In this document: piece by piece, positions 10,438-52,530 of the stretch
Numbering within the stretch: the first letter of the stretch is position 1
How the letters are laid out: each line of letters opens with the position of its first letter
Source of the DNA: an uncultured delta proteobacterium
GTDB lineage: Bacteria > Myxococcota_A > Polyangia > Polyangiales > Polyangiaceae
NCBI GenBank assembly: GCA_963782055.1
Contig: CAWAIF010000002.1
Span: forward strand, 320,001-384,000
Length of the DNA: 64,000 nucleotides
Direction: 5' to 3'
Position numbers and translations under genes: made by a program
Notes under the pieces: generated by a model
The model's input: only the letters and a program-made list of their open reading frames with translations
Told to the model about the DNA's origin: nothing
Database searches by the model: none

Positions 10438-11568
10438 ATGACGGACGCCTACGCACCGACGGTCGACCCCCACGCGGCCGCCCTCTCGCGCCTCCTCTCC
10501 ATGGTCGCCGAGGAAGCCATCTTCGGTCTCTCCGCCGCCCTGGGCAACGCCAACGACGCCCTCGCGGAGCTCGGCAAGCGCCGCAAGGAGGTGCACGCGG
10601 CGGCCGCCGCCGGCCAGCCCGTCATCCGCATGACCGAGTCCTTCGATCAGTGGATCGTCGAGATGTCCCGCGCGATGGCGTCCATCAGCCCGCCCTCGTG
10701 GATGCCCATGGCGGAGGTGCTCCGCGAGAAGGTCACCCTGGAGATCGGCGCGCGCGGCCTGCGCTCCCTCTTCTCCTCCAAGCCGAGCGACAAGGACGTG
10801 CAGCGCGTCAAGCGCCTGGGCACCCTCGCGGTGCGCGTGCTGCGCGCGGTCTTCGCCTCCGATGGTCCGGTCGACGCCGAGGAGGCGCGCACCCTCGCGT
10901 CGCTCATCGGCTCGCTCGGCCTGCCGGAGGCCGACGCCGCGCCCCTCTACACCGAGGCCCCCGTCGCCATCGAGCAGGTCGAGCTCTACGGCGAGATCGA
11001 GCCCTCCGTCGCGCGCGCCATCCTCCGCGGCGCCTGGCTCGCCGCCGCGTGGGACGCCCTGGACCCGCCCGAGGAGCAGGTCATCCGCGCTCTCTCCACC
11101 AAGCTCAACATCCAGCTCAACGACGTCGAGTACATGCGCAACGAGGCCATCGCCCGCGTGGACGCGCGCCGCATGGTGGGCCTCGCCACCGTCGACGCCG
11201 TCCGCTTCATGCTCTCCGATCGCGTGCCCGGCCAAGGCACCAAGCTCGCGGCCGACGCCGGCGCCCTCATGCTCCCGCGCCGCTACCGGGAGGAGGCGCT
11301 CGCCCAGGTCACGCAGAACACGCCGGTCGCCCTCACGCAGCGCTACAAGGGCATCTCCGGCGACGAGAAGACGAGCGTCCTCGGCATCGCCTGGGCCGCC
11401 GCCCTGGTGGAGGACCCGAGCGTGTCGCGCCAGGCGCTCCTGCGCGCGCGCCTGGATCGCCTCGCGCAGGACCTCGGCGAGAAGGCCGACGGCGCGCGCA
11501 AGATCGTCGACGAGATGGTCTGGGCCTGCCTCGCCGACGCGGCCGCGACGACGGTGCGTGCGTCGTGA
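10438..11568 (+). CDS. Hypothetical protein with TerB-like helical repeats
   Basis: Clean high-GC3 ORF between ligA and proC; FASDGPVDAEE resembles the TerB ADG-x-V-x3-E motif. Confidence 0.6.
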   Translation: MTDAYAPTVDPHAAALSRLLSMVAEEAIFGLSAALGNANDALAELGKRRKEVHAAAAAGQPVIRMTESFDQWIVEMSRAMASISPPSWMPMAEVLREKVTLEIGARGLRSLFSSKPSDKDVQRVKRLGTLAVRVLRAVFASDGPVDAEEARTLASLIGSLGLPEADAAPLYTEAPVAIEQVELYGEIEPSVARAILRGAWLAAAWDALDPPEEQVIRALSTKLNIQLNDVEYMRNEAIARVDARRMVGLATVDAVRFMLSDRVPGQGTKLAADAGALMLPRRYREEALAQVTQNTPVALTQRYKGISGDEKTSVLGIAWAAALVEDPSVSRQALLRARLDRLAQDLGEKADGARKIVDEMVWACLADAAATTVRAS

Positions 11569-14120: not shown

Positions 14121-15575
14121 TCACTGCGCGGCGCTCTCGACCTGGTAGACGTCCTTCGCGACGCCGTCAGCGCCCCCGTTGTCGCTGGCGCCGCCGAAGC
14201 CACCCTTGCCCGCCGCGCCCACCTGCACGTCGGCGGTCACCTCCGGCGCGTGCACGTCGTACATGACGCCCACCGAGACGCCGCCGGCGCCGCCGGCGCC
14301 GGTGCCGCCGTGGCCGCCGTGGCCACCGCCGCCGCTCGCGCAGATCCCGCCGGCGGCCTGCCCGCCCACCTGCCCCGACTGAGCATTCGAGCCCAAGCCG
14401 CCGTGGCCGCCTGCGTGCGTGACGATCTCACCGCCGCTCACCACCAGCGTCGTCTCGCCCGCGGCGAGCACGCCGATGCTCCCGCCGCCGCCCTGCCCGC
14501 CGCCGCCGCCCGCGCCGCCACACCCGCCGCACGATCCGCCGGGACCTCCGTAGCCGTAGTTGCCGGAGGCGCCGCCGCCGCCCTGGCCCACGCCGCCGCT
14601 CTGGCCGGCCGAACCGTCCTGCGGGGCCCATTTCCCCTGCGCGTCCAGCCCACCCACGATCGGGGCCGCCACGCCCTCCTTACCCACCGCCCCGGCCGCG
14701 CCGGTGTGCCCGGCACCGCACTGCGCGTTGCCCAGGTTGAAGAGGCCGCCGGCGCCGTCGACGCCCGCCTGCACCACGGTGTCGGCCGGGCTGCCCTTGG
14801 CGCCGTCGGTGCCCTTCGCGCCGCCCGCGCCGCCGAGGGAGTACGTCCCGTCCTTGCAGGAGCACTTCTTGGATGTGCCGCCGCTCACGCCGGACGCCGC
14901 GCTGCCCACGACGCTCGGGTCGTTGCTGGCGACGGGGTCGTAGTTGCTGCCGGGCACGCCGCCCGCGCCATCCTGTCCGCGCCCGGCCTCGATGTGCGCC
15001 CCCACGAAGGAGACCTTGCCCGCGTCGTGCAGCGCCACGGCCGTGCTCGTCTGGCCGGGCTGCCCGGCGTCGCGCGCGACGATGGACACGTCCTCGAAGA
15101 CGTGCGCGCCGCCTGTGCCGGTCATCGTCAGCGGGTTCGGGCCGGCCCCGAGGGTCGACGCGTCGCCGGTGTAGCTCCAGTCGGCGCAGGAGAAGCCGCC
15201 GTAGAGGTTGGCGGCGTGGGAGGCGTCCATCGTGACGTCCTCCGGGTACGCGCCGGCGCACAGGAAGATGGTGCCGCGTCCGTCGAGCATCTTCAGGGCG
15301 GCGCCCACCGTGCGCAGCGGCGCGGTACGTGAGCCCGCCCCGGTCTGATCGTCACCGTTGGGCGAGACGAAGACGCCTGCGGTCTCGGTCACGCACGCCG
15401 GATCGTCCTTCGGCTCCTGTCCGGACGCGCATGTGGGCGTGGTGCCGCCGTCAGCGCTGGTGCCGCCGGTGCTGTCGCCTGGCAGCTCGCCGCCCGGAGC
15501 GAAGGTGTCCGCCGTGCACCCGACGACGAGCGCGAGCACCGAGAGACCGAGAAGACCGAAGACCCGACCGACCAT
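14121..15575 (-). CDS. Gly-rich (PGRS-like) lipoprotein with DUF1565-like N-terminal domain, paralog L2
   Basis: Lipobox LVVGC; GVFVSPNGDD...APLRTVGAAL; LYGGFSCADWSY; poly-Gly motifs GGSCGGCGG, GAGGAGGVSVG. Confidence 0.85.
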   Translation of the reverse strand: MVGRVFGLLGLSVLALVVGCTADTFAPGGELPGDSTGGTSADGGTTPTCASGQEPKDDPACVTETAGVFVSPNGDDQTGAGSRTAPLRTVGAALKMLDGRGTIFLCAGAYPEDVTMDASHAANLYGGFSCADWSYTGDASTLGAGPNPLTMTGTGGAHVFEDVSIVARDAGQPGQTSTAVALHDAGKVSFVGAHIEAGRGQDGAGGVPGSNYDPVASNDPSVVGSAASGVSGGTSKKCSCKDGTYSLGGAGGAKGTDGAKGSPADTVVQAGVDGAGGLFNLGNAQCGAGHTGAAGAVGKEGVAAPIVGGLDAQGKWAPQDGSAGQSGGVGQGGGGASGNYGYGGPGGSCGGCGGAGGGGGQGGGGSIGVLAAGETTLVVSGGEIVTHAGGHGGLGSNAQSGQVGGQAAGGICASGGGGHGGHGGTGAGGAGGVSVGVMYDVHAPEVTADVQVGAAGKGGFGGASDNGGADGVAKDVYQVESAAQ

Positions 15576-15620: not shown

Positions 15621-17030
15621 CTACGGGATGGTGACCTGCGCCTGCGCCAGCCCGGGGATGCCATCGTCGTTGGCGCCGGCACCGGAGCCCGCCGCGCCGG
15701 CGTTTCCCACCTTGGTCTTCGTGGCGCTGTCCACGTCGGGAAGGGGCAGGCCCTTGATGAGCAGCGCGGCGGACACGCCGCCCGCGCCGCCGCCGCCGCT
15801 GCCGCCGTTGCCACCGGGCCCGCCGCCGCCGCCGGAGCATCCGTCGAGGTAGCCGTTGCCCCTGGCGCCCCCCTGCGGCATCCCCTGGATCCCGGTGACG
15901 CCTCTGCCGCCGTCGCCGGCGTCGTTGGCGAAGAGCTGAGACGCGAAGACGTGCACCTTGCTCGTGTCGACGGCGAGCGCCGCGCTCGCTCCCCCGCCGC
16001 CGCCTCCCTTGCCGCCCGGTCCGCCGCAACCGCCCGCGCCGCCGCCGCCGCCGCCGCCGGTGTTGCCGCCATTGTAGTTGCCGCCGCCGCCACCGCCCCC
16101 CTGGCCCACTCCGCCGTTGGCGCCGTCGCCCCCGGCCGTCGGCATCCAGGTTCCGTCCGGCGCGAAGTCCCCGAGCGTCGCCGCTCCCACCCCGTCGCCG
16201 CCCGATTTGCCCGCGCTTCCGCCGCCGCCGCCCTGGCAGCTCACATTGCCGCCCCCTCCACCGGCGCCGCCGCCGAGCGCCGGCATGCCGTCGTCCCCCT
16301 TCGAGCCGCTGTCCCCCCCCTGACCGCCGGTGGTGGTCTCGCCGGTAGGGCACTTGGAGTAGGTCATGGCGGCGCCGCCGCTGTTGCCGGTGGAGTCGTG
16401 GCCCTTGAGGTCGATCACCGGAGGCATCGCGGCGGAGGGTGGTACCGCGGAGGCGCCGCCCGATCCCCTGCCGGCGGTGAGCACGACGCGCACGAACGTG
16501 ACGTCCTTGGACTTGGACACCAACGCCGCGATGCTCGACTCACCCGGGTTGCTCCCGCTCCCCGCCGCGACGCTGACGTCGGAGATCAAGATCCCCCGGT
16601 CGGGCACGGTGATGCGCAGCGGGAGGTTGCTCGCGCCGATCGTCGGCACGCTCGACGCGTTGTACGCCCAGTCCCCGCACTCCAGCCCGCCGATGAGGCT
16701 CGCCGCTTTCTTCGCCTGGAGCGACACGTCCTCGAGGTAGTGACCCTGGCACACGTACACGCGGGGCTTGCCCCCTAGGTTGTCCAGCGCGTGCCCGATC
16801 GTCTTGAACGGGTGCTCCTTCGTCCCGTCCCCGGTCTGGTCGTTGCCGCCGGTGCCGTCCACGAAGACGCCCACTTCGTCCGTGACGCACGCGGCGGAGT
16901 CCATCGGCGTCTTCGCGAGATCGCAGCCGCTCGGGACGCCTGCGTCCGCGCCGGCGTCGTCGTTGTTGAAGGAATCCCCCCCGCACGCCACGAAAATCAG
17001 GCCCGCGAGCCCGAGGGCAAGGTGTCGCAT
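15621..17030 (-). CDS. Gly-rich (PGRS-like) lipoprotein with DUF1565-like N-terminal domain, paralog L1
   Basis: Lipobox FVAC; GVFVDGTGGND...HPFKTIGHAL; RVYVCQGHY; GGGGAGGCGG, GGGAGGVS. Confidence 0.85.
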   Translation of the reverse strand: MRHLALGLAGLIFVACGGDSFNNDDAGADAGVPSGCDLAKTPMDSAACVTDEVGVFVDGTGGNDQTGDGTKEHPFKTIGHALDNLGGKPRVYVCQGHYLEDVSLQAKKAASLIGGLECGDWAYNASSVPTIGASNLPLRITVPDRGILISDVSVAAGSGSNPGESSIAALVSKSKDVTFVRVVLTAGRGSGGASAVPPSAAMPPVIDLKGHDSTGNSGGAAMTYSKCPTGETTTGGQGGDSGSKGDDGMPALGGGAGGGGGNVSCQGGGGGSAGKSGGDGVGAATLGDFAPDGTWMPTAGGDGANGGVGQGGGGGGGNYNGGNTGGGGGGGAGGCGGPGGKGGGGGGASAALAVDTSKVHVFASQLFANDAGDGGRGVTGIQGMPQGGARGNGYLDGCSGGGGGPGGNGGSGGGGAGGVSAALLIKGLPLPDVDSATKTKVGNAGAAGSGAGANDDGIPGLAQAQVTIP

Positions 17031-17102
17031 CGATCAGTCCTCCTCGCTTCGAAGAAAAGAAAAGTCCGGCGCACAAAGCGTAGCGCACCGCGCCGCCGGG
17101 GA

Positions 17103-17134
17103 AAGAAAGCTGCACCGCCGTCGCTTTCTTGACA
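17103..17134. promoter_or_regulatory. 8-bp inverted repeat (AAGAAAGC-N12-GCTTTCTT) overlapping a TTGACA hexamer in the divergent intergenic region
   Basis: Read directly: arms 17103-17110 and 17123-17130; TTGACA at 17129-17134. Confidence 0.4.
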
Positions 17135-17252
17135 ACCGCGCGGACCCCCGGGTCGAGGGGCGGGGGACATGCGCGGACTTGGGCATCGGCCGCAAAGGAG
17201 GGTACGCTCGGCGCGTCATGTGCAGGCGTGCGTACCACCGCGGGAGTTTCGC

Positions 17253-17912
17253 GTGAGCAAGGTCGACACCGATCAGGGCCTCGGTCCGCCGAGCAGCGAG
17301 TCACGGGTCAAGTCGGCGGACGCGGCGGAGGGGCAGGCGCCCCCGCAGGCCTCGCGCAAGGCGGACACGCTGGACGAGCTGCTGGACGACTTCGGCCCGC
17401 AGCGACCGGACCAGCCGCGCATCCGCCCCAAGGCGGAGACGACGCCGCCGCCCGCGCCGGTGAAGAAGGAGCTGACGCCGACGGAGCCGGGCATGCGGCA
17501 GAAACGCAACCGCGTCCTGGTCGCCACCACGCTCGCGATCGTGGTGACCCTGGTGCTGGGGCTCGGGGTGCTCAAGCTGGTGCGCTCCTCGCCGGAGACG
17601 CCGCCCGCGCCGAGCGCGACGCAGACCGCGCGACAGCCGCCGCCGGAGACGCTCACCGCGACGGTGGGGACCACCGCGGAGACGGCGCCCGCGCCCGCGG
17701 CGAGCGCCACCGCGGTGGAGACCGCAGCGACCACCACCGTCCCCGCCGCGCACACCGCGCAGCCTCACCACACGTCGGAGGCGCCCCGTGCGAGCGCCAC
17801 CGCGCACGCCACCACCACCGCCACGGCCACCGCGACGCCGCACCCGACCGCGCACCCCGCGGGCAGCGCGCCTCCCGGGATGAACCTGCTCCCCGACGAT
17901 CCCCACCGATGA
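17253..17912 (+). CDS. Single-pass membrane protein with Pro/Thr/Ala-rich extracellular stalk
   Basis: From GTG 17253: acidic DTLDELLDDF, TM segment VLVATTLAIVVTLVLGLGVL, PTA-rich tail; ATGA overlap with the next gene. Confidence 0.7.
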   Translation: MSKVDTDQGLGPPSSESRVKSADAAEGQAPPQASRKADTLDELLDDFGPQRPDQPRIRPKAETTPPPAPVKKELTPTEPGMRQKRNRVLVATTLAIVVTLVLGLGVLKLVRSSPETPPAPSATQTARQPPPETLTATVGTTAETAPAPAASATAVETAATTTVPAAHTAQPHHTSEAPRASATAHATTTATATATPHPTAHPAGSAPPGMNLLPDDPHR

Positions 17913-18943
17913 GAACGTACTTCCTCTTGCCGCTCGCCCTCGCCGGCGGGCTGCTCTCCGCGTCCGCCTTCGCCCAGGACCAGACCTCCCCCGAGTACCA
18001 GGAGGCCAAGCAGCGCCTCCAGGAGGGCAAGGCCCTCTACGGGCAGGGCAACATCGACGGCGCGCGCCTCAAGTTCGAGCAGGCGTGCTCGGTGCTCAAG
18101 ACGCCGGCGTGCCTGCGCGCGCTGGGCCTGTCGGACTTCTACACGAAGCGCTACCTGGAGGCGCTCGGCAACCTGCAGAAGGCGCTGGAGGACAAGGAGC
18201 TGACCACCACGCAGCGCAAGCAGGTGACCGACCTGATGCAGCAGGCGTACGCGCAGACGGGGCACCTGGAGATCACCGCGCCGGCGGGCGGTCGCGTGCG
18301 CATCGACGACACCGTCGACGAGGGCAACGCGCCGCTGAGCGACGAGGTGCACGTCACGGCGGGGCAGCACATCGTCAGCGTGACGGTCGACACGCACGCC
18401 GAGCGCATGACGGTGGACTGCGCGCAGGGGAAGCTGGTGAAGGTGGACTTCACGAGCAAGTTCCCCGCGGCGAGCGGCGCGACGGGTGGCGCGGGCGCGC
18501 AGGGGAACGGCGGGGTCGGCCAGCCTGGCGGCCCTGGCGAGGGCGGGGAGCAACACCACGCGGGGGGGGGCGTGACCCGCTGGATCGTCGGCGGCGCGGT
18601 GGCGGCTGTCGGCCTGGTGGGCGTGGGCCTGGGCGTGGGCTTCCTGGTGGACTCCGGCTCGGCCAGCGACGACGCGGCGAACCTCCGCACGCAGCTCGGC
18701 GCGAGCGCGTCGTGCCCGGGGGCGGACGCCGCGCAGTGCGCGACGCTGAGCGGGCTGAAGGATCGCTACGACAACGGACAGACGCTCGGTCCGGTGTTTC
18801 TGGGCGTGGGCGTGGGCCTGGTGGTCGCGGGCGCGGCCACCGCGCTGCTCTGGCCCGGACCGAAGAAGGAGCAGTCGACCGGCCTGCGGGTCGTGCCCTT
18901 CGTGGGGCGCGAGTCGGGCGTCGCCGTGCTCGGTGCTTTCTAG
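17909..18943 (+). CDS. Secreted TPR + PEGA-like domain protein with C-terminal hydrophobic hairpin
   Basis: Signal peptide MRTYFLL...AFA; TPR-like EAKQRLQEGKALY; GHLEITAPAGGRVRID...VTAGQHIVSV; two hydrophobic segments; terminal Phe. Confidence 0.8.
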   Translation: MRTYFLLPLALAGGLLSASAFAQDQTSPEYQEAKQRLQEGKALYGQGNIDGARLKFEQACSVLKTPACLRALGLSDFYTKRYLEALGNLQKALEDKELTTTQRKQVTDLMQQAYAQTGHLEITAPAGGRVRIDDTVDEGNAPLSDEVHVTAGQHIVSVTVDTHAERMTVDCAQGKLVKVDFTSKFPAASGATGGAGAQGNGGVGQPGGPGEGGEQHHAGGGVTRWIVGGAVAAVGLVGVGLGVGFLVDSGSASDDAANLRTQLGASASCPGADAAQCATLSGLKDRYDNGQTLGPVFLGVGVGLVVAGAATALLWPGPKKEQSTGLRVVPFVGRESGVAVLGAF

Positions 18944-18959: not shown

Positions 18960-20484
18960 ATGCGTCACCTTGCATGCTTGACCGGCTGCGTCCTCGTCGC
19001 CGGTGCCGTGGTCTTCGTCGCGCCGGGCTGCGGCTCGGCGGATTGCTCCTTCGAATCTCACCTGCGCGAACGCCGACGGCGGGACGGACGGCGGGGGAGA
19101 CGTGACGGTGGACGCGGGGCCGGACGGCTCCGGTTGTGACGTGGTCGCCGACCCGTCGTGCATCGACGAGTCGAGCGGAGTGTTCGTCTCTCCGACCGGG
19201 GACGACTCGCACGACGGGAGCAAGGCCAACCCGCTGGCCACCATCGGCGCGGCGCTGAAGAAGAACAAGGCGCGCGTCTACATCTGCCAGGGGACGTACG
19301 CGGAGAACGTGGACATCAAGGCCAACGTGGACCTGCTCGGCGGGTATGCGTGCGGGGACTGGTCGTACGCGGCCTCCAACGCCGCCACGATCCAGCCGGG
19401 GAGCGGGCTTGCGCTGCACGTGGACTCGGCGACGAGCGTGGTCCGGGATCTGAAGTTCGTGGGGGCGGACGCGTCGAAGGCGGGGGACTCGTCCATCGGC
19501 GCGCTCGCGGCGAGCTCGACGGTGACGTTGGTGCGCGACGACATCGAGGCGGGGAAGGGGATGAGCGCGACGCCGCCGTCGGCCCAGGCGGACTTCACGC
19601 CGGCGCAGGCGAGCAGCGGCAACACTGGAACGCTCAACAATGGCGGTGGACAGCAACCGGTGACGTGTCCCAATGGGAGCGGGAGTACGACGGGGGGAGC
19701 GGGCGGACCGCCCGGCGGAGCAAATGGCGTGAAGGGACAACCATTTGCCACCTACACGGTCAACCCCCCCAATGCTGATGGGACCGGTGGCGTGACGGGG
19801 AGTGATTGCATTGCGGGCCTCGGTCGAAACGGCTCCTACGGTCCCGGCGGCGCCGCGGGTGCGGGCGCGGCCAAGGCGGGCACGCTCGACGCGACGGGCT
19901 GGGCGCCCTCCGCCGGTGGTGCGGGCGGCACCGGCAAGGTCGGCGAGGGCGGCGGAGGCGGGGCGAGCCTGGACTCTGCCGGTGGCGGTGGCGGCGGCGG
20001 AGCTGGCGGCTGCGGTGGCACGGGCGGAGCGGCCGGCCCGGGTGGCGGAGCGAGCATCGCGCTCACGCTGGTGCAGTCCACCGCGACGCTCACGCAGACG
20101 AAGCTCGTCGCGAAGGACGCCGGCGACGGCGCGAAGGGGGGCACAGGGCAGAAGGCGCAGGGGGGTGGGAACGCCGGCTCGTTCTTCGCGACGTCGTGCA
20201 ATGGCGGCGCCGGCGGCCACGGTGGCTCCGGCGGCGGTGGCGGCGGCGGCGCGGGAGGCCTCTCCGTGGGCATCCTGTGGACCGGCACCGCGCCGACCAT
20301 CGACGGTTCCTCCACGTCGTCGGCGGACACCCTCGCGACGGTGACGACGGGCAAGGCCGGCGCGGCGGGCGCAGGCGGCGCCGGGGGTACCGCCGTGAAG
20401 ACCAGCAACCCCGCGAGCAACGCCGGCGCGGCCGGCAATCCGGGTTTGGCGGGGGTCGCCAAGGCCGTGATGCAGGCACCATGA
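18960..20484 (+). CDS. Gly-rich lipoprotein R1 (body type X); +1 frameshift just after the signal peptide (~19050)
   Basis: Signal MRHLACLTG...APGC from ATG 18960 after GAGGA; body in ORF 19003-20484; removing one T at 19050/19051 gives GCGSADCSSNLTCANADGG. Confidence 0.8.
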
Positions 20485-20522
20485 ATCGCCCTCTCTCGTC
20501 TCGCCACGAGGTCGGGTAGACC

Positions 20523-22022
20523 ATGCGCTGGTCCATCGGCCTCTCGTCTGCGCTCGCCATCGGCATCACCTGCGTCGCCGGTTGCGGGGATAGCTCCAGC
20601 GCGAACGCCGACGGCGGGACGGACGGCGGGGGAGACGTGACGGTGGACGCGGGGCCGGACGCGCCGCCCGGGTGCGATCTCACCAAGGACCCGAAGGACT
20701 CCCCCGCGTGCGTGGACGACGCGGTGGGCATCTTCGTGGACGGCACGAACGGCGACGACGGCAACGCGGGGACGAAGCTCGAGCCGGTGAAGACGATCGG
20801 CGCGGCGCTGAAGCTCACGAGCGCGCAGCAGGCGCGCGTGTACGTGTGCAAGGGGGTGTACGCGGAGGACGTGGTGGTGGACGCGAGCCACGACGGCGTG
20901 TCCATCTACGGCGGGTGGCGGTGCGCGGACTGGAGCTACAGCGGGACCAAGCCCATCGTGGGCGCGGGGACGATGGCGCTGAAGCTCGACGGCCTGACGA
21001 AGGCGGTGACCATCGAGGACATGGACTGGAAGTCGGCGGACGCGACGGCGGACGGCGGGTCGAGCATCGCGGCGTTCGTGAACGGCTGCGCGAACGTGAC
21101 GCTGGTGAGGGACACGCTGGAAGCGGGGAAGGGTAAGGCCGGCGCAGCGGGGAAGGCGGGGAGCAACTACACGGCGGTGGCGCAAGGCGACACCTCGATC
21201 AAGGGCAAGGATGGCAACGGGATCGTTGGCGGCGGGCCGCACGCCTGCACCTTGTGTACCGATGGTAAGAACTCAACCGGAGGGTTTGGCGGAAACGGGG
21301 GAACGTCGCCGGGTGATGGTCAGGACGGAACGCCCAATCTGGGTGGCATCAACCCGTTGGACGGAAAGGGTGGTGCCAAGGACATCGGCAGTGGATGCAC
21401 GTCAGGACACAAGGGTCCAACGGGCGACGCGGGGATAGCTGCCGTGGCTATTGCCGCTTCGGGCGTGCTGGATCCCACCGGATGGAAGCCGGCGATGGGC
21501 GGGGCTGGGTCCAATGGTGGGCCCGGTCAAGGTGGCGGCGGGGGTGGCGGAGGTCTGGACGGCAACAACACCGCAGGAGGCGCTGGTGGCGGCGGTTGTG
21601 GTGGCTGCGGCGGCGCCTCGGGATCTGGCGGTGGAGGCGGGGGCGCCAGCATCGCGCTAGCCGTCCTGTCCTCGACGGTTCAGGTCGCCTCGAGCAGCAT
21701 GGCGAGCACCGTCGCCGGCAACGGCGGAGCGGGTGCAGCAGGGCAGGCAGGGCAGGCCGGCGGATTCAGCGGCCAGAACATCAACCCCGGTTGCTCCGGC
21801 GGTACCGGCGGCACCGGCGGAGCCGGTGGCGCAGGAGGCGGCGGGGCAGGCGGCATCTCCGTCGGCGTGCTCTGGAAGGGCACCGCGGCGCCGACGCTTG
21901 ACTCGTCAACGACCAGCAACATCGTCTTCGCGCAGCAGGGCGGCGCCAAGGGCACCGGCGGCGCGCCCGGCCAGAACGACGGCATCGACGGCGTCGCGCA
22001 GGCCGTGCTCGAGGTGAAGTAG
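20523..22022 (+). CDS. Gly-rich lipoprotein R2 (body type Y)
   Basis: Lipobox VAGC; GIFVDGTNGDD...EPVKTIGAAL; poly-Gly motifs; ends DGVAQAVLEVK. Confidence 0.88.
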   Translation: MRWSIGLSSALAIGITCVAGCGDSSSANADGGTDGGGDVTVDAGPDAPPGCDLTKDPKDSPACVDDAVGIFVDGTNGDDGNAGTKLEPVKTIGAALKLTSAQQARVYVCKGVYAEDVVVDASHDGVSIYGGWRCADWSYSGTKPIVGAGTMALKLDGLTKAVTIEDMDWKSADATADGGSSIAAFVNGCANVTLVRDTLEAGKGKAGAAGKAGSNYTAVAQGDTSIKGKDGNGIVGGGPHACTLCTDGKNSTGGFGGNGGTSPGDGQDGTPNLGGINPLDGKGGAKDIGSGCTSGHKGPTGDAGIAAVAIAASGVLDPTGWKPAMGGAGSNGGPGQGGGGGGGGLDGNNTAGGAGGGGCGGCGGASGSGGGGGGASIALAVLSSTVQVASSSMASTVAGNGGAGAAGQAGQAGGFSGQNINPGCSGGTGGTGGAGGAGGGGAGGISVGVLWKGTAAPTLDSSTTSNIVFAQQGGAKGTGGAPGQNDGIDGVAQAVLEVK

Positions 22023-22025
22023 GTC

Positions 22026-23471
22026 ATGCGCCGCCTCGGGGGGATCGCTTGCGTGCTCGTCGCGGCCTGCCTCGCCGGTTGCGGGGACAGCTCCAGCACG
22101 AACGCCGACGGCGGGACGGACGGCGGGGGAGACGTGACGGTGGACGCGGGGCCGGACGCGCCGCCCGGGTGCGAACTCACCAAGGACCCGAAAGACTCGG
22201 CGGCGTGCGTGGACGACGCGGTGGGCATCTTCGTGGACGGCACGAACGGCGACGACGGCAACGCGGGGACGAAGCTCGAGCCGGTGAAGACGATCGGCGC
22301 CGCGCTGAAGCTGACGAGCGCGCAGCAGGCGCGCGTGTACGTGTGCGAGGGGACGTACGCGGAGGACGTGGTGGTGGACGCGAGCCACGACGGGGTGTCC
22401 ATCTACGGCGGGTGGCGGTGCGCGGACTGGAGCTACAGCGGGACCAAGCCCATCGTGGGCGCGGGGACGATGGCGCTGAAGCTCGACGGCCTGACGAAGG
22501 CGGTGACCATCGAGGACATGGACTGGAAGTCGGCGGACGCGACGGCGGACGGCGGGTCGAGCATCGCGGCGTTCGTGAACGGGTGCGCGAACGTGACGCT
22601 GGTGAGGGACACGCTGGAAGCGGGCAAGGGCAAGGCCGGCGCGGCGGGGACGCTGACGAACTTCAACTACCCGGACCAGGCGACGCTGAACGGGAAGGAC
22701 GCGTCGGGTATGACGGGTGGGCCGGCCAACGCGGTGAAGTGTCCGGCCGGCGACACGACGACGGGAGGCAAAGGCGGAGACAACGGCAGCACCGGCGACC
22801 CAGGTCTTCCAAGCCTAGGCGCAGGACAGGGGGGGACCCTGGCAGCTTGCGGTAGTGGCGGCTCAGGGAGTGACGGCGCTCCTGCATCGAAGGGACCGGA
22901 TGGCTCGGCGCCGTCGGGGCTAGGTAGCCTTTCCAGTCAAGGATGGGCAAGCATGGCTGGCGGGGCGGCCAAAGCGGGTGGCCCCGGGCAAGGGGGTGGA
23001 GGTGGGCTTGGCTTCGGAGGCGGCGGTGGCGGCGGGGGCGGCGCGGGTGGGTGCGGCGGTGCCGGCGGACCCGGTGGCGGTGGCGGGGGCGCCAGCGTCG
23101 CACTGGTGGTGCTGTCCTCCACCGTGACCGTGACGGCGAGCGCGCTGCAGGCGGCCACCGCGGGTGCCGGGGGAACTGGCGCGGCGGGACAGCCGGGAGA
23201 GACTACTTTCGGCTTTCACGGCAACGGGACCGGCGCTGGCTGCCAGGGCGGCAACGGCGGCACCGGCGGAAATGGTGGCGCAGGAGGCGGCGGGGCGGGT
23301 GGCATCTCCGTCGGCGTGCTCTGGAAGGGCACCGCGGCGCCGACGCTTGACTCATCAACGAACACCAACATCGTCTTCGCGCAGCAGGGCGGCGCCAAGG
23401 GCACCGGCGGCGCGCCCGGCACCAACGACGGCATCGACGGCGTCGCCCAGGCCGTGCTCGAGGTGAAGTAG
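22026..23471 (+). CDS. Gly-rich lipoprotein R3 (body type Y)
   Basis: Lipobox LAGC; framework nearly identical to R2 and R5. Confidence 0.88.
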   Translation: MRRLGGIACVLVAACLAGCGDSSSTNADGGTDGGGDVTVDAGPDAPPGCELTKDPKDSAACVDDAVGIFVDGTNGDDGNAGTKLEPVKTIGAALKLTSAQQARVYVCEGTYAEDVVVDASHDGVSIYGGWRCADWSYSGTKPIVGAGTMALKLDGLTKAVTIEDMDWKSADATADGGSSIAAFVNGCANVTLVRDTLEAGKGKAGAAGTLTNFNYPDQATLNGKDASGMTGGPANAVKCPAGDTTTGGKGGDNGSTGDPGLPSLGAGQGGTLAACGSGGSGSDGAPASKGPDGSAPSGLGSLSSQGWASMAGGAAKAGGPGQGGGGGLGFGGGGGGGGGAGGCGGAGGPGGGGGGASVALVVLSSTVTVTASALQAATAGAGGTGAAGQPGETTFGFHGNGTGAGCQGGNGGTGGNGGAGGGGAGGISVGVLWKGTAAPTLDSSTNTNIVFAQQGGAKGTGGAPGTNDGIDGVAQAVLEVK

Positions 23472-23474
23472 GTC

Positions 23475-24979
23475 ATGCGCCGCCTCGGGGGATCGCTTGC
23501 GTGCTCGTCGCGGCCTGCGTCGCCGGTTGCGGGGACAGCTCCAGCACGAACGCCGACGGCGGGACGGATGGGGGCGGGGGAGACGTGACGGTGGACGCGG
23601 GGCCGGACGGCTCCGGTTGTGACGTGGTCGCCGACCCGTCGTGCATCGACGAGTCGAGCGGCGTGTTCGTCTCTCCGACCGGGGACGACTCGCACGACGG
23701 GAGCAAGGCCAACCCGCTGGCCACCATCGGCGCGGCGCTGAAGAAGAACAAGGCGCGCGTCTACATCTGCCAGGGGACGTACGCGGAGAACGTGGACATC
23801 AAGGCCAACGTGGACCTGCTCGGCGGGTATGCGTGCGGGGACTGGTCGTACGCGGCCTCCAACGCCGCCACGATCCAGCCGGGGAGCGGGCTTGCGCTGC
23901 ACGTGGACTCGGCGACGAGCGTGGTCCGGGATCTGAAGTTCGTGGGGGCGGACGCGTCGAAGGCGGGGGACTCGTCCATCGGCGCGCTCGCGGCGAGCTC
24001 GACGGTGACGTTGGTGCGCGACGACATCGAGGCGGGGAAGGGGATGAGCGCGACGCCGCCGTCGGCCCAGGCGGACTTCACGCCGGCGCAGGCGAGCAGC
24101 GGCGATGGCGGGAAGGTGAACAACGGCGGCGCGCAGACGCCGAACAACTGCCCGAATGGGAGCGGCAACAGCATCGGCGGTGCAGGGGGCCCGCCTGGCG
24201 CAAACAATGGCTCGAAGGGGCAGCCGTTCGCTTCCTATCCCGTGAATCCAGCAATGGCGGATGGGACAGGCGGGACGACGGGAAGCAATTGTATCGCTGG
24301 GCTCGGCCGTGACGGCTCCTACGGTCCCGGCGGCGCCGCGGGTGCGGGCGCGGCCAAGGCGGGCACGCTCGACGCGACGGGCTGGGCGCCCTCCGCCGGT
24401 GGTGCGGGCGGCACCGGCAAGGTCGGCGAGGGCGGCGGAGGCGGGGCGAGCCTGGACTCTGCAGGAGGCGGTGGCGGCGGCGGAGCTGGCGGCTGCGGTG
24501 GCACGGGCGGAGCGGCTGGCCCGGGTGGCGGAGCGAGCATCGCGCTCGCGCTGGTGCAGTCCACCGCGACGCTCACGCAGACGAAGCTCGTCGCGAAGGA
24601 CGCCGGCGACGGCGCGAAGGGGGGCACAGGGCAGAAGGCGCAGGGGGGTGGAGGCTCGGGTGGCGCGGGTGGAACTCCCGGCGTCGATGCGTGCGGTGGC
24701 GGCGCAGGCGGTCATGGCGGCTCCGGCGGCGGTGGCGGCGGCGGCGCGGGAGGCCTCTCCGTGGGCATCCTGTGGACCGGCACCGCGCCGACCATCGACG
24801 GTTCCTCCACGTCGTCGGCGGACACCCTCGCGACGGTGACGACGGGCAAGGCCGGCGCGGCGGGCGCAGGCGGCGCCGGGGGTACCGCCGTGAAGACCAG
24901 CAACCCCGCGAGCAACGCCGGCGCGGCCGGCAATCCGGGCCCGGCGGGGGTCGCCAGGGCCGTGATGCAGGCACCATGA
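23475..24979 (+). CDS. Gly-rich lipoprotein R4 (body type X); -1 frameshift in a G5 tract within the signal peptide
   Basis: 5' end matches R3 except G5 (23487-23491) versus G6 (22038-22043); body near-identical to R1 outside two variable blocks. Confidence 0.8.
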
Positions 24980-25017
24980 ATCGCCCTCTCTCGTCTCGCC
25001 ACGAGGTCGGGTAGACC

Positions 25018-26469
25018 ATGCGCTGGTCCATCGGCCTCTCGTCTGCGCTCGCCATCGGCATCACCTGCATCGCCGGTTGCGGTGACAGCTCCAGCGCGAA
25101 CGCCGACGGCGGGACGGACGGCGGGGGAGACGTGACGGTGGACGCGGGGCCTGACGCGCCGCCCGGGTGCGATCTCACCAAGGACCCGAAGGACTCCCCC
25201 GCGTGCGTGGACGACTCGGTGGGGATCTTCGTGGACGGGACGGCCGGGGACGACGGCAACGCGGGGACGAAGGAGAAGCCGGTGAAGACGATCGGCGCCG
25301 CGCTGAAGCTGACGAGCGCGCAGCAGGCGCGCGTGTACGTGTGCGAGGGGACGTACGCGGAGGACGTGGTGGTGGACGCGAGCCACGACGGGGTGTCCAT
25401 CTACGGCGGGTGGCGGTGCGCGGACTGGAGCTACAGCGGGACGAAGCCCATCGTGGGGGTGGGGACGATGGCGCTGAGGCTGGACGGGCTGACGAAGGCT
25501 GTGACCATCGAGGACATGGACTGGAAGTCGGCGGACGCGACGGCGGACGGCGGGTCGAGCATCGCGGCGTTCGTGAACGGCTGCGCGAACGTGACGCTGG
25601 TGAGGGACACGCTGGAAGCGGGCAAGGGCAAGGCCGGCGCGGCGGGGACGCTGACGAACTTCAACTACCCGGACCAGGCGACGCTGAACGGGAAGGACGC
25701 GTCGGGTATGACGGGTGGGCCGGCCAACGCGGTGAAGTGTCCGGCCGGCGACACGACGACGGGAGGCAAAGGCGGAGACAACGGCAGCACCGGCGACCCA
25801 GGTCTTCCAAGCCTAGGCGCAGGACAGGGGGGGACCCTGGCAGCTTGCGGTAGTGGCGGCTCAGGGAGTGACGGCGCTCCTGCATCGAAGGGACCGGATG
25901 GCTCGGCGCCGTCGGGGCTAGGTAGCCTTTCCAGTCAAGGATGGGCAAGCATGGCTGGCGGGGCGGCCAAAGCGGGTGGCCCCGGGCAAGGGGGTGGAGG
26001 TGGGCTTGGCTTCGGAGGCGGCGGTGGCGGCGGGGGCGGCGCGGGTGGGTGCGGCGGTGCCGGCGGTACCGGCGGCGGAGGCGGTGGAGCGAGCATCGCG
26101 CTGGTCGTGCTGTCGTCCACCGTCAGCATGACAACGAGCACGCTGCAGGCGGGCACGGCTGGCGCCGGAGGAGCAGGTGCCGCCGGGCAACCCGGGCAGG
26201 GCATCTACGGCTTTGGTGGAAACAAAACGGCTGGTGGCTGCCAGGGTGGCAACGGCGGCACCGGCGGAAACGGTGGTGCCGGAGGCGGCGGGGCGGGTGG
26301 CATCTCCGTCGGCGTGCTCTGGAAGGGCACCGCGGCGCCAACGCTTGACCCGTCAACGAACACCAACATCGTCTTCGCACAGCAGGGCGGCGCGAAGGGC
26401 ACCGGGGGCGCGCCCGGCACCAACGACGGCATCGACGGCGTCGCTCAGGCCGTGCTGGAAGTGAAGTAG
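25018..26469 (+). CDS. Gly-rich lipoprotein R5 (body type Y)
   Basis: Signal peptide as R2 (MRWSIGLSSAL), central cassette identical to R3, distinct second variable block. Confidence 0.88.
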   Translation: MRWSIGLSSALAIGITCIAGCGDSSSANADGGTDGGGDVTVDAGPDAPPGCDLTKDPKDSPACVDDSVGIFVDGTAGDDGNAGTKEKPVKTIGAALKLTSAQQARVYVCEGTYAEDVVVDASHDGVSIYGGWRCADWSYSGTKPIVGVGTMALRLDGLTKAVTIEDMDWKSADATADGGSSIAAFVNGCANVTLVRDTLEAGKGKAGAAGTLTNFNYPDQATLNGKDASGMTGGPANAVKCPAGDTTTGGKGGDNGSTGDPGLPSLGAGQGGTLAACGSGGSGSDGAPASKGPDGSAPSGLGSLSSQGWASMAGGAAKAGGPGQGGGGGLGFGGGGGGGGGAGGCGGAGGTGGGGGGASIALVVLSSTVSMTTSTLQAGTAGAGGAGAAGQPGQGIYGFGGNKTAGGCQGGNGGTGGNGGAGGGGAGGISVGVLWKGTAAPTLDPSTNTNIVFAQQGGAKGTGGAPGTNDGIDGVAQAVLEVK

Positions 26470-26472
26470 CGC

Positions 26473-26991
26473 TCAGGGGCAGTCGGCCAGCCGCGCGTCG
26501 ACCTCGAGCATGCGCGGGTGGCGCTCGCCCTTGCCCTCGGCGACGAGGGTCGCGCGGTCGCGTCGCAGCGCGGCGCACTCCTCCGCGCTCGGAGGGGGCA
26601 TGGGCTTCGAGTCCCCGCAGAGCGCCAGCTTGGCGGCGGCGACCACCATCTCCGGATGGGCAGGCCCGTATCCGCGCGCCACCATCGCCTCGCGATCGCG
26701 CAGCACGCGCGCGCACGCCTCCGCCGAGGGCGTGCGGTCCTGACACTTCGCGAGGGCCGCCTCCACCTCCAGCACCTCCGGGTGCCGCTCGCCCTTGCCA
26801 CGCGCGCGCAGCTCGGCGCGGTCGAGCGCGAGATCGCCGCAGCTCTCGCCCTGGTGGCTGGGCGCGATCACGATGGGCGCCGGGCCCGCCGGGCGGGGCG
26901 GGGGCAGGACCGCGACGACGACGGTACGCTGCGGGGGCGCGTGGGCGCACGCGACCATGCACAGCGCAACGATCGAGACGGCGAGCCTCAC
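26473..26991 (-). CDS. Lipoprotein with three 33-aa Cys-bracketed 'G-x-G-x-x-HP' repeats
   Basis: GTG 26991 overlapping the upstream TGA; MRLAVSIVALCMVAC lipobox; three 99-nt repeat units. Confidence 0.7.
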   Translation of the reverse strand: MRLAVSIVALCMVACAHAPPQRTVVVAVLPPPRPAGPAPIVIAPSHQGESCGDLALDRAELRARGKGERHPEVLEVEAALAKCQDRTPSAEACARVLRDREAMVARGYGPAHPEMVVAAAKLALCGDSKPMPPPSAEECAALRRDRATLVAEGKGERHPRMLEVDARLADCP

Positions 26992-27524
26992 TGCAGCAAC
27001 AGCCCTTCGCCCGCCCCGCAGCGAGCGACCAGCGCCGCGAGCGCGCTCATGAGCGCCGTCACGCCGGCCACCTCCCACGCGCCGCGCGTCTTCTCCAGCG
27101 CCTCCCCCAGCGCGGCGATCTCGCCCGGCGCGACGAGGCTCGGTCCCTGGTCGGCGAGCCAGGCAGGGAGCCCGTGGTCGGGGGCGAACACCTCGCGGAT
27201 CACCGCGGCGGCGCTCGCGTCCTCCGCCGAGCCTGCGAGCGCCCCCAGCAGCTTCGCGGGCGCGTCCTCCACGTCCAGGTTCTCCAGCCTGTCGCGCTCC
27301 AGGGCGAGGGCGAGGGCCTCCGCACCGCCGGCGATGAAGCGCTCGCCCTTGCCGAACCAGAGCAGCTTTTTCTTGCGCTCGACCTTGAGGCCCTCGATCT
27401 GTCGCTCGCGCAGCAGGCCCTCGAGCGGCGTCATCGCCTCGTACTCGCGCGCCTTCTCGAACGCGGCGAGCAAGCGCTCCGCGTGCGTCCAGGGAATGCG
27501 ATCGACCGAACCGACCAGCGCCAT
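26988..27524 (-). CDS. Hypothetical protein
   Basis: ORF directly downstream of trxA with typical codon usage. Confidence 0.6.
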   Translation of the reverse strand: MALVGSVDRIPWTHAERLLAAFEKAREYEAMTPLEGLLRERQIEGLKVERKKKLLWFGKGERFIAGGAEALALALERDRLENLDVEDAPAKLLGALAGSAEDASAAAVIREVFAPDHGLPAWLADQGPSLVAPGEIAALGEALEKTRGAWEVAGVTALMSALAALVARCGAGEGLLLQ

Positions 27525-48859: not shown

Positions 48860-49033
48860 ATGAAAACCGGATTCCGTCTGTTTCGCACGAAGCGTGGTGC
48901 GGTGCAGGTTGAATACGCCTTTCTCCTACTTTGGGTGATGGTGCCCACAGCGACGGTTCTCCTGGCGGGCGGTAAGCACATGTACGACCAGTACAAGACC
49001 ATCCGCGCACAGATTCTGCTGTCAACGCCCTGA
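48860..49033 (+). CDS. Flp-like type IVb pilin (divergent), 57 aa
   Basis: Manual translation MKTGFRLFRTKRG/AVQVEYAFLLLWVMVPTATVLLAGG...; G/xxxxEY motif; GGGAGG RBS; not in the ORF track. Confidence 0.8.
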   Translation: MKTGFRLFRTKRGAVQVEYAFLLLWVMVPTATVLLAGGKHMYDQYKTIRAQILLSTP

Positions 49034-49084
49034 AGGCCGAGCAGCGAGAAACCACAACCCCCAAACAACCTGGAGGATACGGAC

Positions 49085-49252
49085 ATGAGCACGAAGAAGT
49101 TCTCGAAGCTGGTGAAGGACAAGCGCGGTGCAACGATGGTCGAGTACGCCATCCTGCTCTTCCTCATCCTCGTCGTCGCGGCCGTCGTCTACAAGAACGT
49201 CGGTACGAAGGTGAAGGACGCCGGTACGTCCGCCGCCAACGCGTTCAACTGA
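49085..49252 (+). CDS. flp: Flp family type IVb pilin, 55 aa
   Basis: Manual translation MSTKKFSKLVKDKRG/ATMVEYAILLFLILVVAAVVYKNVG...; GGAGG RBS; not in the ORF track. Confidence 0.92.
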   Translation: MSTKKFSKLVKDKRGATMVEYAILLFLILVVAAVVYKNVGTKVKDAGTSAANAFN

Positions 49253-49341
49253 TCCTCAGGTGCCCAGGCGCCGCGTCCTCGGTTGGGGGCGCGGCGCCGG
49301 CGTGAAACAGGGCGACCACCGATCGTGATACAAGTCGGCGT

Positions 49342-49875
49342 ATGACCTATTTTCTCGTTGCGGCTGCCCTCGTGGCAGCCGTCGCGGCCGTCACCGACTG
49401 GAAGACGGGAGAGATCCCGAACTGGCTCACGCTCGGCGCCCTGTTCCTCGCCCCGATCGCCTACGGCGCCGTCGCCGCGGTGCACCACGCACCCGACATC
49501 GGCATGCAGGTGGTCTGGTCTCTGCTGGGCGCCATCGTTTGCGCCATCGTCCCGGGGCTGCTCTACCGGCAGGACGCCATCGGCGGCGGCGACGTGAAGC
49601 TACTGATTGCGCTCGGCGCGATTCTCCAGGCCCGCCTGGGACTCGAAGCCGAGATGTACTCATTTTTCGCGGCGGGTTTGATCGCCCCGGCGCGACTTGC
49701 TTACGAAGGGAAGCTGTTCAGGACCATCAAGAACACGTTGCTCTTGGCCCTGAACCCGCTCCTCCCGAAAAAGAAACGTCGGACCGTCGAACCGACGCTT
49801 CTTACCTGGTTTCGATTCGGACCTGCGATATTCTTAGGAACGGCGTTGGTGGCCTACATCCACTGGAGGCAGTGA
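49342..49875 (+). CDS. Prepilin peptidase A24 (TadV/CpaA-like)
   Basis: TDWKTGEIPNWL, IGGGDVKL, FGPAI. Confidence 0.92.
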   Translation: MTYFLVAAALVAAVAAVTDWKTGEIPNWLTLGALFLAPIAYGAVAAVHHAPDIGMQVVWSLLGAIVCAIVPGLLYRQDAIGGGDVKLLIALGAILQARLGLEAEMYSFFAAGLIAPARLAYEGKLFRTIKNTLLLALNPLLPKKKRRTVEPTLLTWFRFGPAIFLGTALVAYIHWRQ

Positions 49876-49877
49876 GC

Positions 49878-50345
49878 ATGAACAAGCTGAGGAAGCCCGT
49901 GGCGCGAAGCACGAAGGGAGCGGTCCTCGCCGAGTTCATCATCGCCATCATCCCGATCTCCGCGATGTTCCTGTGCGTGTGCCAGATCGCGCGCCTGCAG
50001 ATCGCACGACTCGCCACGATGCACGCGGCTCAAGTGAGCGTGCGTGCGTGTGCGGTCATCGTCGATCCGGACCCCGGTCACGACCAGGGAGTCGACGGCA
50101 AGGACACCGACGTCGTCACCGCCGAGCGCCAGGTGCTCAAGCCGTTCGAGGGGAGCGAGTACGCCGCCGAGGACGCCACCTGCAAGCACTCCGGCGACGT
50201 GAACGGCGGGACGGATACGGTGACCATCAAGGCCACCTACACCTGCACGATCCCGCTCGCGCGGCACATCATCTGCCCGGGCGGGACCCGCAAACTCGAT
50301 GCCCAGGCGCAGTTCCCCCACCAAGGCGCGGAGTACGAGCTATGA
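49878..50345 (+). CDS. TadE-like pseudopilin
   Basis: KG/AVLAEFIIAIIP...HAAQVSVRAC. Confidence 0.82.
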   Translation: MNKLRKPVARSTKGAVLAEFIIAIIPISAMFLCVCQIARLQIARLATMHAAQVSVRACAVIVDPDPGHDQGVDGKDTDVVTAERQVLKPFEGSEYAAEDATCKHSGDVNGGTDTVTIKATYTCTIPLARHIICPGGTRKLDAQAQFPHQGAEYEL

Positions 50346-52018
50346 GCGCTGCCGTTGCACCGTCGGTCCTGTCCTTCCTCTTCGCCAAGGAGCGCGATCG
50401 AGCGAAGCGCACCGTGAACGACAACCGCGGCGCCATCATGGTGCTCGGCATCTTCATGGCGTGCGTGATGATCGGCTTCATGTGGATGCTGGTCGGCCTG
50501 GGCGACGCGATGATCTGGCGCGACCGCTCGCAGGAGGCAGCTGACGCGCTCGCCTACACGAGCGCCGCCGCCGACGCGAAGGCGATGAACTTCATCTCCT
50601 TCCTCAACCTCATCATGCTCCTCATCGCCGCCATCTATCTGGCGATGGCGCTCATCTACAACCTGCTCGACTTCACGCTCGTGCTCGTCGGTCGCACCGA
50701 CGACGGTCCCTGGCTGCGTCCGTCCTCCTGCGAGTACCGCGACGGCGTGAAGGACTTCGCGGCGATCGCCCTGGACGAGACGGGTATCGGCGAGGTGCTG
50801 CAGGCGATCGACTTCTGCGAGGTGGCCGATATCGCTCAGCCCCTGCACGACACGGTGGGCAAAGCACTGCGTGCCTACGAGAAGGACGTGATGTGGACCA
50901 TCCTCCCCTTGCTATCGAAGGCGGAGACCTTCGTCGCGATGGCCGGACCCTGGGTGGGCGCTGCGCTCGGGTCGATGGATGCCTACAAGTACACGGACTG
51001 GGGGAAGCATCGCTACGGCCTTCCCATCAGCTCCTCCATGGTTCCGGCGAGTGTCCTCCCCGCACCCGTCAAGAAGTGGTCCGCTGAGGATCGCAAGAAG
51101 CCGTACACCGGGCGCGACGGCCGTCAGGGCCTGCCGGTGGAGCCGAAGGAGATGGGCGAGCTTTGCAAGGTCGCCGCCGACGGCATCCTGGACACGACGC
51201 TGGGCTTCCTGAAGAAGATCCCCGGCATCGGCCTCATCGCCAAGCTCATGTTCGGCGGCATCGCCGACGCGATGGAGAAGGACTACTGCAAGAAGAACGC
51301 GAAGGGCATCTTCGGCAGCTTCGACGGCTGGGTGGCAGGCCTCGGTCATGCCCTCTCGGTGTGGGGCACCATCGCGGGCAAGGGGCCCAACCCGGACCAC
51401 GGCATCTATCACGTGGAGAAGAACGGGAAGTCCATCTGGGAGGACCCGGACGGCGTCGGCGGCCCGCACGAGGTCGTCGAGTACGCCGAGAACGGCAACG
51501 ACTGGATGCAGGTGTGGGGCGGCGTGCTCGGCGCCAACCGTCCGGAGCAGGCGCAGCGGAAGGTCGGCGCGGTCTACGCCCCGGCCCTCAACAGCCAGGC
51601 GCCCAGCGACACGACGGTGCAGGGCTTCCTCGCCAGCCTCACCACGAACTTCTCCTTCTACTTCGCGCAGTCGGAGTTTTATTACGACTGCGACAAGAAG
51701 TGGACGGACGAGGAGTGCAACAAGAACTCGCTCGCCAGCTACAACCTGAAGTGGCGCGCGCGCCTCCGCCGTGTCCACGGCATCTCCTGGGGCAAGGACA
51801 TGCTCGGGTGGTTCTGGAACACCAGCATGGGCGGCGACTTCGACAAGTGGGTCAAGGGCGGCGAGCAGGGTGACGTCAAGACCCTCTCCGAGAGCATCCA
51901 CGGGTTCGAGGGTGAGACGGCCGTCAACGGCGCCTACGACGCCGTCAAGGGCTTCGCCGGCCAGCAGGTCGGCGGCATGATCAACCCCGCCTCGGCGCTG
52001 CCGTCGGTCATCCACTGA
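50342..52018 (+). CDS. TadG-like minor pilin with large C-terminal domain
   Basis: NRG/AIMVLGIFMA...SQEAADALAYTSA; W-R-A-R-L-R motif near the C-terminus. Confidence 0.8.
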   Translation: MSAAVAPSVLSFLFAKERDRAKRTVNDNRGAIMVLGIFMACVMIGFMWMLVGLGDAMIWRDRSQEAADALAYTSAAADAKAMNFISFLNLIMLLIAAIYLAMALIYNLLDFTLVLVGRTDDGPWLRPSSCEYRDGVKDFAAIALDETGIGEVLQAIDFCEVADIAQPLHDTVGKALRAYEKDVMWTILPLLSKAETFVAMAGPWVGAALGSMDAYKYTDWGKHRYGLPISSSMVPASVLPAPVKKWSAEDRKKPYTGRDGRQGLPVEPKEMGELCKVAADGILDTTLGFLKKIPGIGLIAKLMFGGIADAMEKDYCKKNAKGIFGSFDGWVAGLGHALSVWGTIAGKGPNPDHGIYHVEKNGKSIWEDPDGVGGPHEVVEYAENGNDWMQVWGGVLGANRPEQAQRKVGAVYAPALNSQAPSDTTVQGFLASLTTNFSFYFAQSEFYYDCDKKWTDEECNKNSLASYNLKWRARLRRVHGISWGKDMLGWFWNTSMGGDFDKWVKGGEQGDVKTLSESIHGFEGETAVNGAYDAVKGFAGQQVGGMINPASALPSVIH

Positions 52019-52026
52019 GGCCCGCC

Positions 52027-52506: not shown

Positions 52507-52530
52507 CACTGACAGGAGCGGAGACACACG

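Follow-up and report, generated by a model that had tools for sequence, protein, structure and literature searches.

What keeps five neighboring genes nearly identical over most of their length, and sharply different in a few short blocks? The question is posed by a tandem array, R1 to R5, in a 64,000-nucleotide stretch of DNA ('the window') from an uncultured delta proteobacterium of the Polyangiaceae (assembly GCA_963782055.1; contig CAWAIF010000002.1, here C2, positions 320,001 to 384,000). The genome is assembled in three contigs, 97% complete and 0.3% contaminated. All five genes lie on one strand, behind genes for a Pro/Thr-rich membrane protein and a secreted TPR protein, and their bodies are of two types, X (R1 and R4) and Y (R2, R3 and R5). 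Their named homologues are from Polyangiaceae, and automatic annotation calls the family 'PGRS family protein'; a search of the literature, with most subscription journals out of reach, produced no description of the family or the array. The answer that we think rather probable is that these genes are mosaics, formed by gene conversion and crossing-over with a second pair of genes elsewhere in the genome, and that they encode lipid-anchored beta-helix proteins whose swapped polyglycine-II tips bind surface targets.

Constant frames and variable blocks

The first-pass annotation, made from the DNA letters alone, described five tandem genes of two body types with bounded variable blocks, and this picture was confirmed almost to the base. 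The blocks it placed in R1 and R4 coincide with the mapped clusters of differences; R3 and R5 have a central cassette in common, preserved as one long exact tract, and diverge directly after it; and R2 carries a different cassette in the same Y framework (Table 1). Its description of R1 and R4 as near-identical apart from two blocks holds for the bodies—all 154 residues of the N-domain are identical, and the longest identical run is 441 bases—but not for the leaders, which differ throughout (the first ~100 bases). R3 and R5 also differ in two small patches of the N-domain. The differences are strongly clustered: in each of the four pairs tested, 2000 permutations never produced a window so dense in differences or an identical run so long. 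When R2, R3 and R5 are compared together, the odd one out switches several times along the gene. The blocks occupy the same two insert positions in R1/R4, in R3/R5, in the second pair (a1/a2) and in L059, a locus of another genome, and open frames and pairs of cysteines are preserved in all of them.

The second pair lies on contig C3 (2441307-2444267; locus L041), preceded by genes for a kinase and a TPR protein. The two genes have about 97% identity and diverge in short patches, located in the same inserts as in the array genes; one is an 11-codon patch in which every codon is different, mostly synonymously. R2 has exact tracts of 36, 35 and 25–26 bases in common with a1/a2, at the linker, the start of the cassette and the start of the tail, and its N-domain protein is about 50% identical to theirs; the stop-to-start junction between R2 and R3 is the same as that between a1 and a2. 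Trees were built from 36 of the 59 family genes collected, the others having failed motif or length filters. In the N-domain tree R2, R3 and R5 group together (support 100/99), and a1/a2 join R1/R4 (96/85); in the tree of the first insert, R2 joins a1/a2 instead (91/87). Approximately unbiased (AU) tests, on 33 rows after three long branches were dropped, rejected R2+R3+R5 for insert 1 (p 0.00077; this grouping was specified in advance) and, for the N-domain, R2+a1+a2 (p 0.0037; this one was picked after the alignment and the insert tree had been viewed). The cassette of R2 groups with a1/a2, then, and its N-domain does not: the trees of the two conflict. The mosaicism by recombination or gene conversion that the annotation had proposed is supported by exact tracts, clustering and conflicting trees alike, and extends to the second locus. 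Within this assembly the mosaic is real, and conversion and crossing-over that involved seven genes, at two loci, account for the sequences best.

The modules meet in a linker between leader and beta-helix, in which R1, R2, R3 and R5 are identical over 58–63 bases; in R4 it is interrupted. Its 36-base core recurs at 20616, 22113 and 25111, and twice on C3 in a1/a2, and is cut to 27 bases in R4, at 23573; across the five array genes and a1/a2, it is identical in six and nearly identical in the seventh. The leaders, which are of lipobox type, track the body that precedes them: R2 and R5, which follow X bodies, have one type, and R3 and R4, which follow Y bodies, another. The repeat unit is therefore a body plus the next leader, joined in the linker and offset from the genes. 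The linker contains no inverted repeat longer than 5 bases, hence no dyad for site-specific recombination, although recombinases were not searched for genome-wide. In R1 and R4 the leader is out of frame with the body, so both X bodies are affected and no Y body is. The shift in R1 falls between 19031 and 19064; in R4 the run of Gs at 23487-23491 counts five, against six in R3 and a2. This rate is high against the background of this genome (2 frameshifts in 7.5 kb, versus 2 frameshifted pairs for 174 near-full kinase domains, ~148 kb), yet each shift falls at a short homopolymer and could be an error of sequencing.

How old are the cassettes? In block 1 of R1 and R4, 49 of 70 residues are identical, and 33 of these 49 are encoded by different codons, where 19.7 would be expected at saturation given the codon use of the genome; in the N-domain, 1 of 174 conserved codons is synonymously different. 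At the DNA level the two blocks are 65% identical to each other and 58–61% identical to the X gene of L048, an array in another genome, whose framework is 68–76% identical to theirs. The cassettes have thus diverged from each other about as far as from the gene of a different genome, and look like old variants. They differ in composition, too. At four-fold degenerate sites, G+C content (GC) is 99–100% in the Y N-domains and 68–71% in the Y glycine regions, against a genome mean of 94% and a median of 89 for glycine-rich windows of this genome (121 windows, family included). In all six pairs with windows of both kinds, the divergent windows have lower values than the shared ones; the seventh pair has no shared window. 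Such a dip could stem from escape from GC-biased conversion, or from import out of other lineages.

A search of the genome with 13 variable blocks found no further copy outside family genes, and thus no silent cassette store elsewhere; the frameshifted R1 and R4 could themselves act as donors. All four bases differ about equally in each of four comparisons, with no bias toward adenine, and there is no reverse transcriptase on this contig; the 13 matches in the genome are all on C3, the nearest about 167 kb from a1/a2. A diversity-generating retroelement was rejected on these two grounds, no adenine-specific differences and no adjacent reverse transcriptase. (Eight of the reverse-transcriptase matches have identical scores, which suggests a retroelement that spread recently.) Gene conversion underlies antigenic variation at Borrelia vls, Neisseria pilE/pilS and Anaplasma msp2, and the annotation had likened the array to such systems. 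The analogy stands for the constant framework, the bounded variable blocks and the segmental exchange among copies. It fails in that no single expression site with a silent store was found, three genes are intact, the cassettes are old and saturated, the signature of a diversity-generating retroelement is missing, and the host is free-living. What this points to is recombination of ancient variants rather than a demonstrated program of switching.

Predicted fold and comparable proteins

AlphaFold2, given an alignment of 105 sequences, models R3 with a predicted local distance difference test score (pLDDT) of 92.6 and a predicted template modeling score (pTM) of 0.86. The model matches right-handed beta-helices, at best with Z 15.1 and a root-mean-square deviation (rmsd) of 2.3 over 185 aligned residues spanning positions 65-481. 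The strand pattern of the beta-helix resumes after each glycine stretch, so these stretches are inserts between rungs. Modeled alone, the C-terminal 280 residues (pLDDT 94.6) match snow flea antifreeze protein (Z 8.0, rmsd 1.4, 75 of 81 residues) and a second polyproline-II-bundle antifreeze protein (Z 6.0); a Z of 8 is near the level at which structure comparison calls for caution, but the two antifreeze rows stand above the rest. In the predicted structure the glycine-rich inserts assemble into a polyglycine-II bundle, and the variable blocks lie within these inserts. Of the 59 family members, 12 lack both Cys275 (insert 1) and Cys406 (insert 2), and none lacks just one of them, which suggests that a disulfide ties blocks 1 and 2 into one surface; from this co-loss and the topology of the chain, we infer that the variable loops lie at the far tip. 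The invariant residues of the family are mostly Gly and Cys, and conserved glycine motifs alternate with variable segments.

Searches of other kinds return little. Pfam has no family for any of seven family proteins; PHROGs gives one weak match, to a tail protein, for the N-domain and none for three C-terminal parts; a search of PDB sequences with an insert profile finds no meaningful match; and Foldseek finds nothing in the PDB at E 0.001 for either model, and weak collagen-like and tail-spike matches in a viral library.

The closest counterpart in design may be a phage adhesin. In gp38 of T-even phages such as S16, T2 and T6, two turns of a beta-helix are drawn out to form a polyglycine sandwich, and the variable loops at its distal end are related to host range (PMC6851490); the conserved glycine motifs of the protein alternate with variable segments drawn from a restricted palette, with exchanges near the motifs (PMC3157838). 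Turn-inserted polyglycine-II in a beta-helix is predicted here as well, and glycine motifs alternate in the same way with variable segments from a limited palette, with exchange near the motifs. Unlike gp38, which has a tryptophan attachment domain for the phage tail fiber, the array proteins have a lipoprotein leader and a linker; they are about 480 residues long against 248 in the solved gp38 chain, their loops are Cys-pinned, and several paralogues are encoded per cell, in a chromosomal context. No gp38 family appears among the Pfam, PHROGs or PDB-profile matches. The array proteins look built like gp38; we do not claim homology.

Among other polyglycine bundles (listed in PMC11364801), the mycobacterial PE_PGRS proteins have a Gly-rich polyglycine-II sandwich with variable loops, a PE domain and a GRPLI motif (PMC9436101). 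A sandwich of this kind is predicted here too, although it is inserted into a beta-helix behind a Gram-negative lipoprotein leader, and the translations have neither a PE domain (no Pfam match) nor a GRPLI motif. DUF1565 and the Leptospira surface proteins LIC10774 and LIC10365 match weakly at the start of the N-terminal beta-helix, and some homologues carry PF07602; the matches (34.5 and 30.3 bits against a 380-bit cut-off) cover about 60 residues, R1 to R5 have no PF07602 match, and no polyglycine inserts are implied in that family.

Neighbors and relatives

Table 1. Features of the array and its surroundings (window coordinates)
Feature	Position	Strand	Remarks
Lb, older family member	14121..15575	-	Not homogenized with array
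La, older family member	15621..17030	-	Not homogenized with array
Pro/Thr-rich single-pass membrane protein	17169..17912	+	Open reading frame; first gene of likely operon; precedes TPR gene in 5 of 6 syntenic congener stretches (6th contig ends earlier)
Secreted TPR protein, hydrophobic C-terminal part	17909..18943	+	Directly upstream of array; weak TPR_2 match below cut-off
R1	18960..20484	+	X-type body with a leader of its own; frame shifts after lipobox Cys codon (19029-19031), before linker
Linker joining leader to beta-helix	19064..19126	+	63 bases identical in R1 and R2
Variable block 1 of R1	19621..19828	+	74 differences from R4 24104-24311
Variable block 2 of R1	20169..20223	+	29 differences from R4 24652-24718
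R2	20523..22022	+	Y-type N-domain, a1/a2-class cassette; intact lipoprotein leader
Divergent glycine-rich region of R2 (departs from R3)	21128..21824	+	Starts with 35-base tract identical to a1/a2 (contig C3)
R3	22026..23471	+	Y-type, intact leader; model is a beta-helix with a polyglycine-II bundle
Exact 485-base match between R3 and R5	22584..23068	+	Spans cassette 1; R5 copy at 25582-26066
Variable block 2 of R3	23069..23249	+	50 differences from R5 26067-26247
R4	23475..24979	+	X-type body, R3-type leader with G5 for G6 (frameshift 23487-23491)
Variable block 1 of R4	24104..24311	+	Partner of R1 block 1
Variable block 2 of R4	24652..24718	+	Partner of R1 block 2
R5	25018..26469	+	Y-type; leader R2-type, cassette 1 R3-type, cassette 2 own
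Variable block 2 of R5	26067..26247	+	Partner of R3 block 2

La and Lb, just upstream, have no long tract in common with the array genes. Part of the TPR protein is a segment that we take to be PEGA-like; it has no Pfam match. A scan for promoters and terminators gave no signal above shuffled sequence, and the gene downstream of the array (26991-27524) had no match, with the query used, in any of five congeners. The TPR operon is oriented opposite to that of the congeners relative to the flanking genes: the block of membrane-protein gene, TPR gene and array is inverted (at window 17030-17169), and the genes clustered ahead of it in the congeners are on C3 instead (C3:137104), which places the locus at a rearrangement break.

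The family has matches in 22 of 31 related genomes, and Labilithrix luteola, a cultured relative, carries a member. Three of the 14 within-locus pairs from other genomes combine a near-identical N-domain with divergent inserts (L031, L059 and L075); L061 has only linker and tail tracts in common, and motifs similar to block 2 recur in other genomes. Of 43 family clusters with room to look, 23 have a TPR relative directly upstream and 8 a kinase, a count in which one locus is entered twice and the a1/a2 locus is missed through overlap of reading frames. In L028 and L075 a TPR gene stands before each family gene, in alternation, which hints at a one-to-one partnership; TPR proteins of this upstream type number 53 in the genome, which also has 187 reading frames for Ser/Thr kinases. 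A metagenome scan with the R3 N-domain gave 10 loci, the best at 63% identity and none conspecific. In L048 (about 10480-11330) the first of three array genes has an internal duplication of the cassette start, its copies separated by unrelated-looking or inverted sequence; it may be real or an assembly error. Apart from all this, a stretch at window 49000-53000 is low in GC (63–66% versus about 73%), and four reading frames tested there have no Pfam match.

Explanations and significance

The mechanism that we propose is this. Repeated gene conversion and unequal crossing-over would give leader, linker, beta-helix and tail modules common to both loci. Ordinary homologous recombination would keep the base constant, and selection would keep or import old, different tips, resulting in a panel of binding specificities. 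Crossing-over in the common linker would move bodies between leaders and alter copy number, and the upstream TPR protein could be a partner in display or transport. Candidate targets of the tips are the surfaces of prey, kin or substrates, and escape from phage is an alternative driver. A role in binding surfaces is likely, by analogy: the recognition role claimed in the first-pass annotation finds its support in the predicted beta-helix, polyglycine-II bundle and variable loops, and in the lipobox-type leaders.

Several observations weigh against this account. L048 combines an R2-type gene with an intact X-type gene in one array, so exchange between R2 and a1/a2 could have run either way. At the syntenic site the congeners have one family gene, and 11 of the 14 outside pairs have no clear pattern (two with partial patches, nine with none). 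The 12 members without the cysteines come from only eight loci, which are related. The C-terminal model matches gp38 itself weakly (6f45_D: Z 2.6, rmsd 4.7, 86 aligned). The amino acids of R1/R4 block 1 are 70% conserved, and synonymous divergence in the blocks has reached saturation, which leaves positive selection, as an excess of nonsynonymous over synonymous divergence (dN/dS), not demonstrable. And the dip in GC is family-wide, single genes included (medians 90 versus 74; 59 genes, 12 of them from this genome), so the low GC of the glycine region is not special to arrays.

Could the pattern be passive? Neutral conversion might homogenize those parts that still pair and leave alone the blocks too diverged to convert, with no selection on the tips. 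This is possible, if doubtful. It would accommodate the age of the cassettes, the want of a dN/dS excess, the frameshifts in both X-type genes, and a genome in which near-identical direct repeats, within 12 kb, form 22 clusters; it sits poorly with blocks that recur at the same two insert positions in four pairs, with the wholly recoded patch inside two 97%-identical genes, and with open frames and cysteine pairs kept throughout. At the other extreme is programmed antigenic or phase variation, in which R1 and R4 would be switched-off donors and the linker a hub for placing bodies behind working leaders. The confinement of frameshifts to X bodies, their excess over the kinase domains, the position of one in a G run, and the near-constancy of the linker core all fit, and frameshifted genes could serve as donors. 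We nonetheless consider this unlikely: there is no cassette store elsewhere, the linker has no sizeable inverted repeat, adenine bias and a reverse transcriptase on the contig are both missing, the frameshifts may be sequencing errors, and a G run of 5–6 is short for a slippage switch.

An artefact of assembly, with alleles of co-occurring strains joined in tandem or repeats cross-polished, is more improbable again. There is a single assembly, the congeners have one gene at the site, and the array of L048 has its odd duplication; but this assembly is in three contigs, nearly complete and hardly contaminated, each copy has private changes and unique flanks, and the pattern recurs in other genomes. 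Even were it true, the pattern of constant base and variable tip would hold between strains. That the proteins are not for recognition at all, and are polysaccharide-degrading beta-helix enzymes or ice-binding proteins instead, strikes us as very improbable. The best fold matches are indeed pectate lyases, pectin methylesterases and glycoside hydrolases, along with the springtail antifreeze proteins, and a few homologues carry PF22842. The alignments take in ~180 residues, however, covering the first 210–240 residues of the enzymes, the invariant residues are mostly Gly and Cys, and neither function explains why variation is concentrated in the inserts.

To our knowledge, little is known of how myxobacteria of the Polyangiaceae distinguish prey, kin and surfaces. 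The array family is a concrete and widespread candidate for such recognition. Its fold is predicted and its variable loops are mapped, which would make tip-swap experiments direct. A bolder version, which we offer tentatively and think doubtful as a whole, is that the Polyangiaceae possess a cell-bound counterpart of gp38: a recombining repertoire with a TPR-docked base and a disulfide-linked, two-block tip, in which the linker moves switched-off bodies behind working signal peptides, tips are traded between loci and species, and the result is an antibody-like panel for prey or kin. If the recombining, surface-binding mosaic that we favor is true, it would bring the beta-helix and polyglycine-tip design of phage adhesins into a cellular setting, and would offer a natural scaffold on which binding loops can be exchanged.

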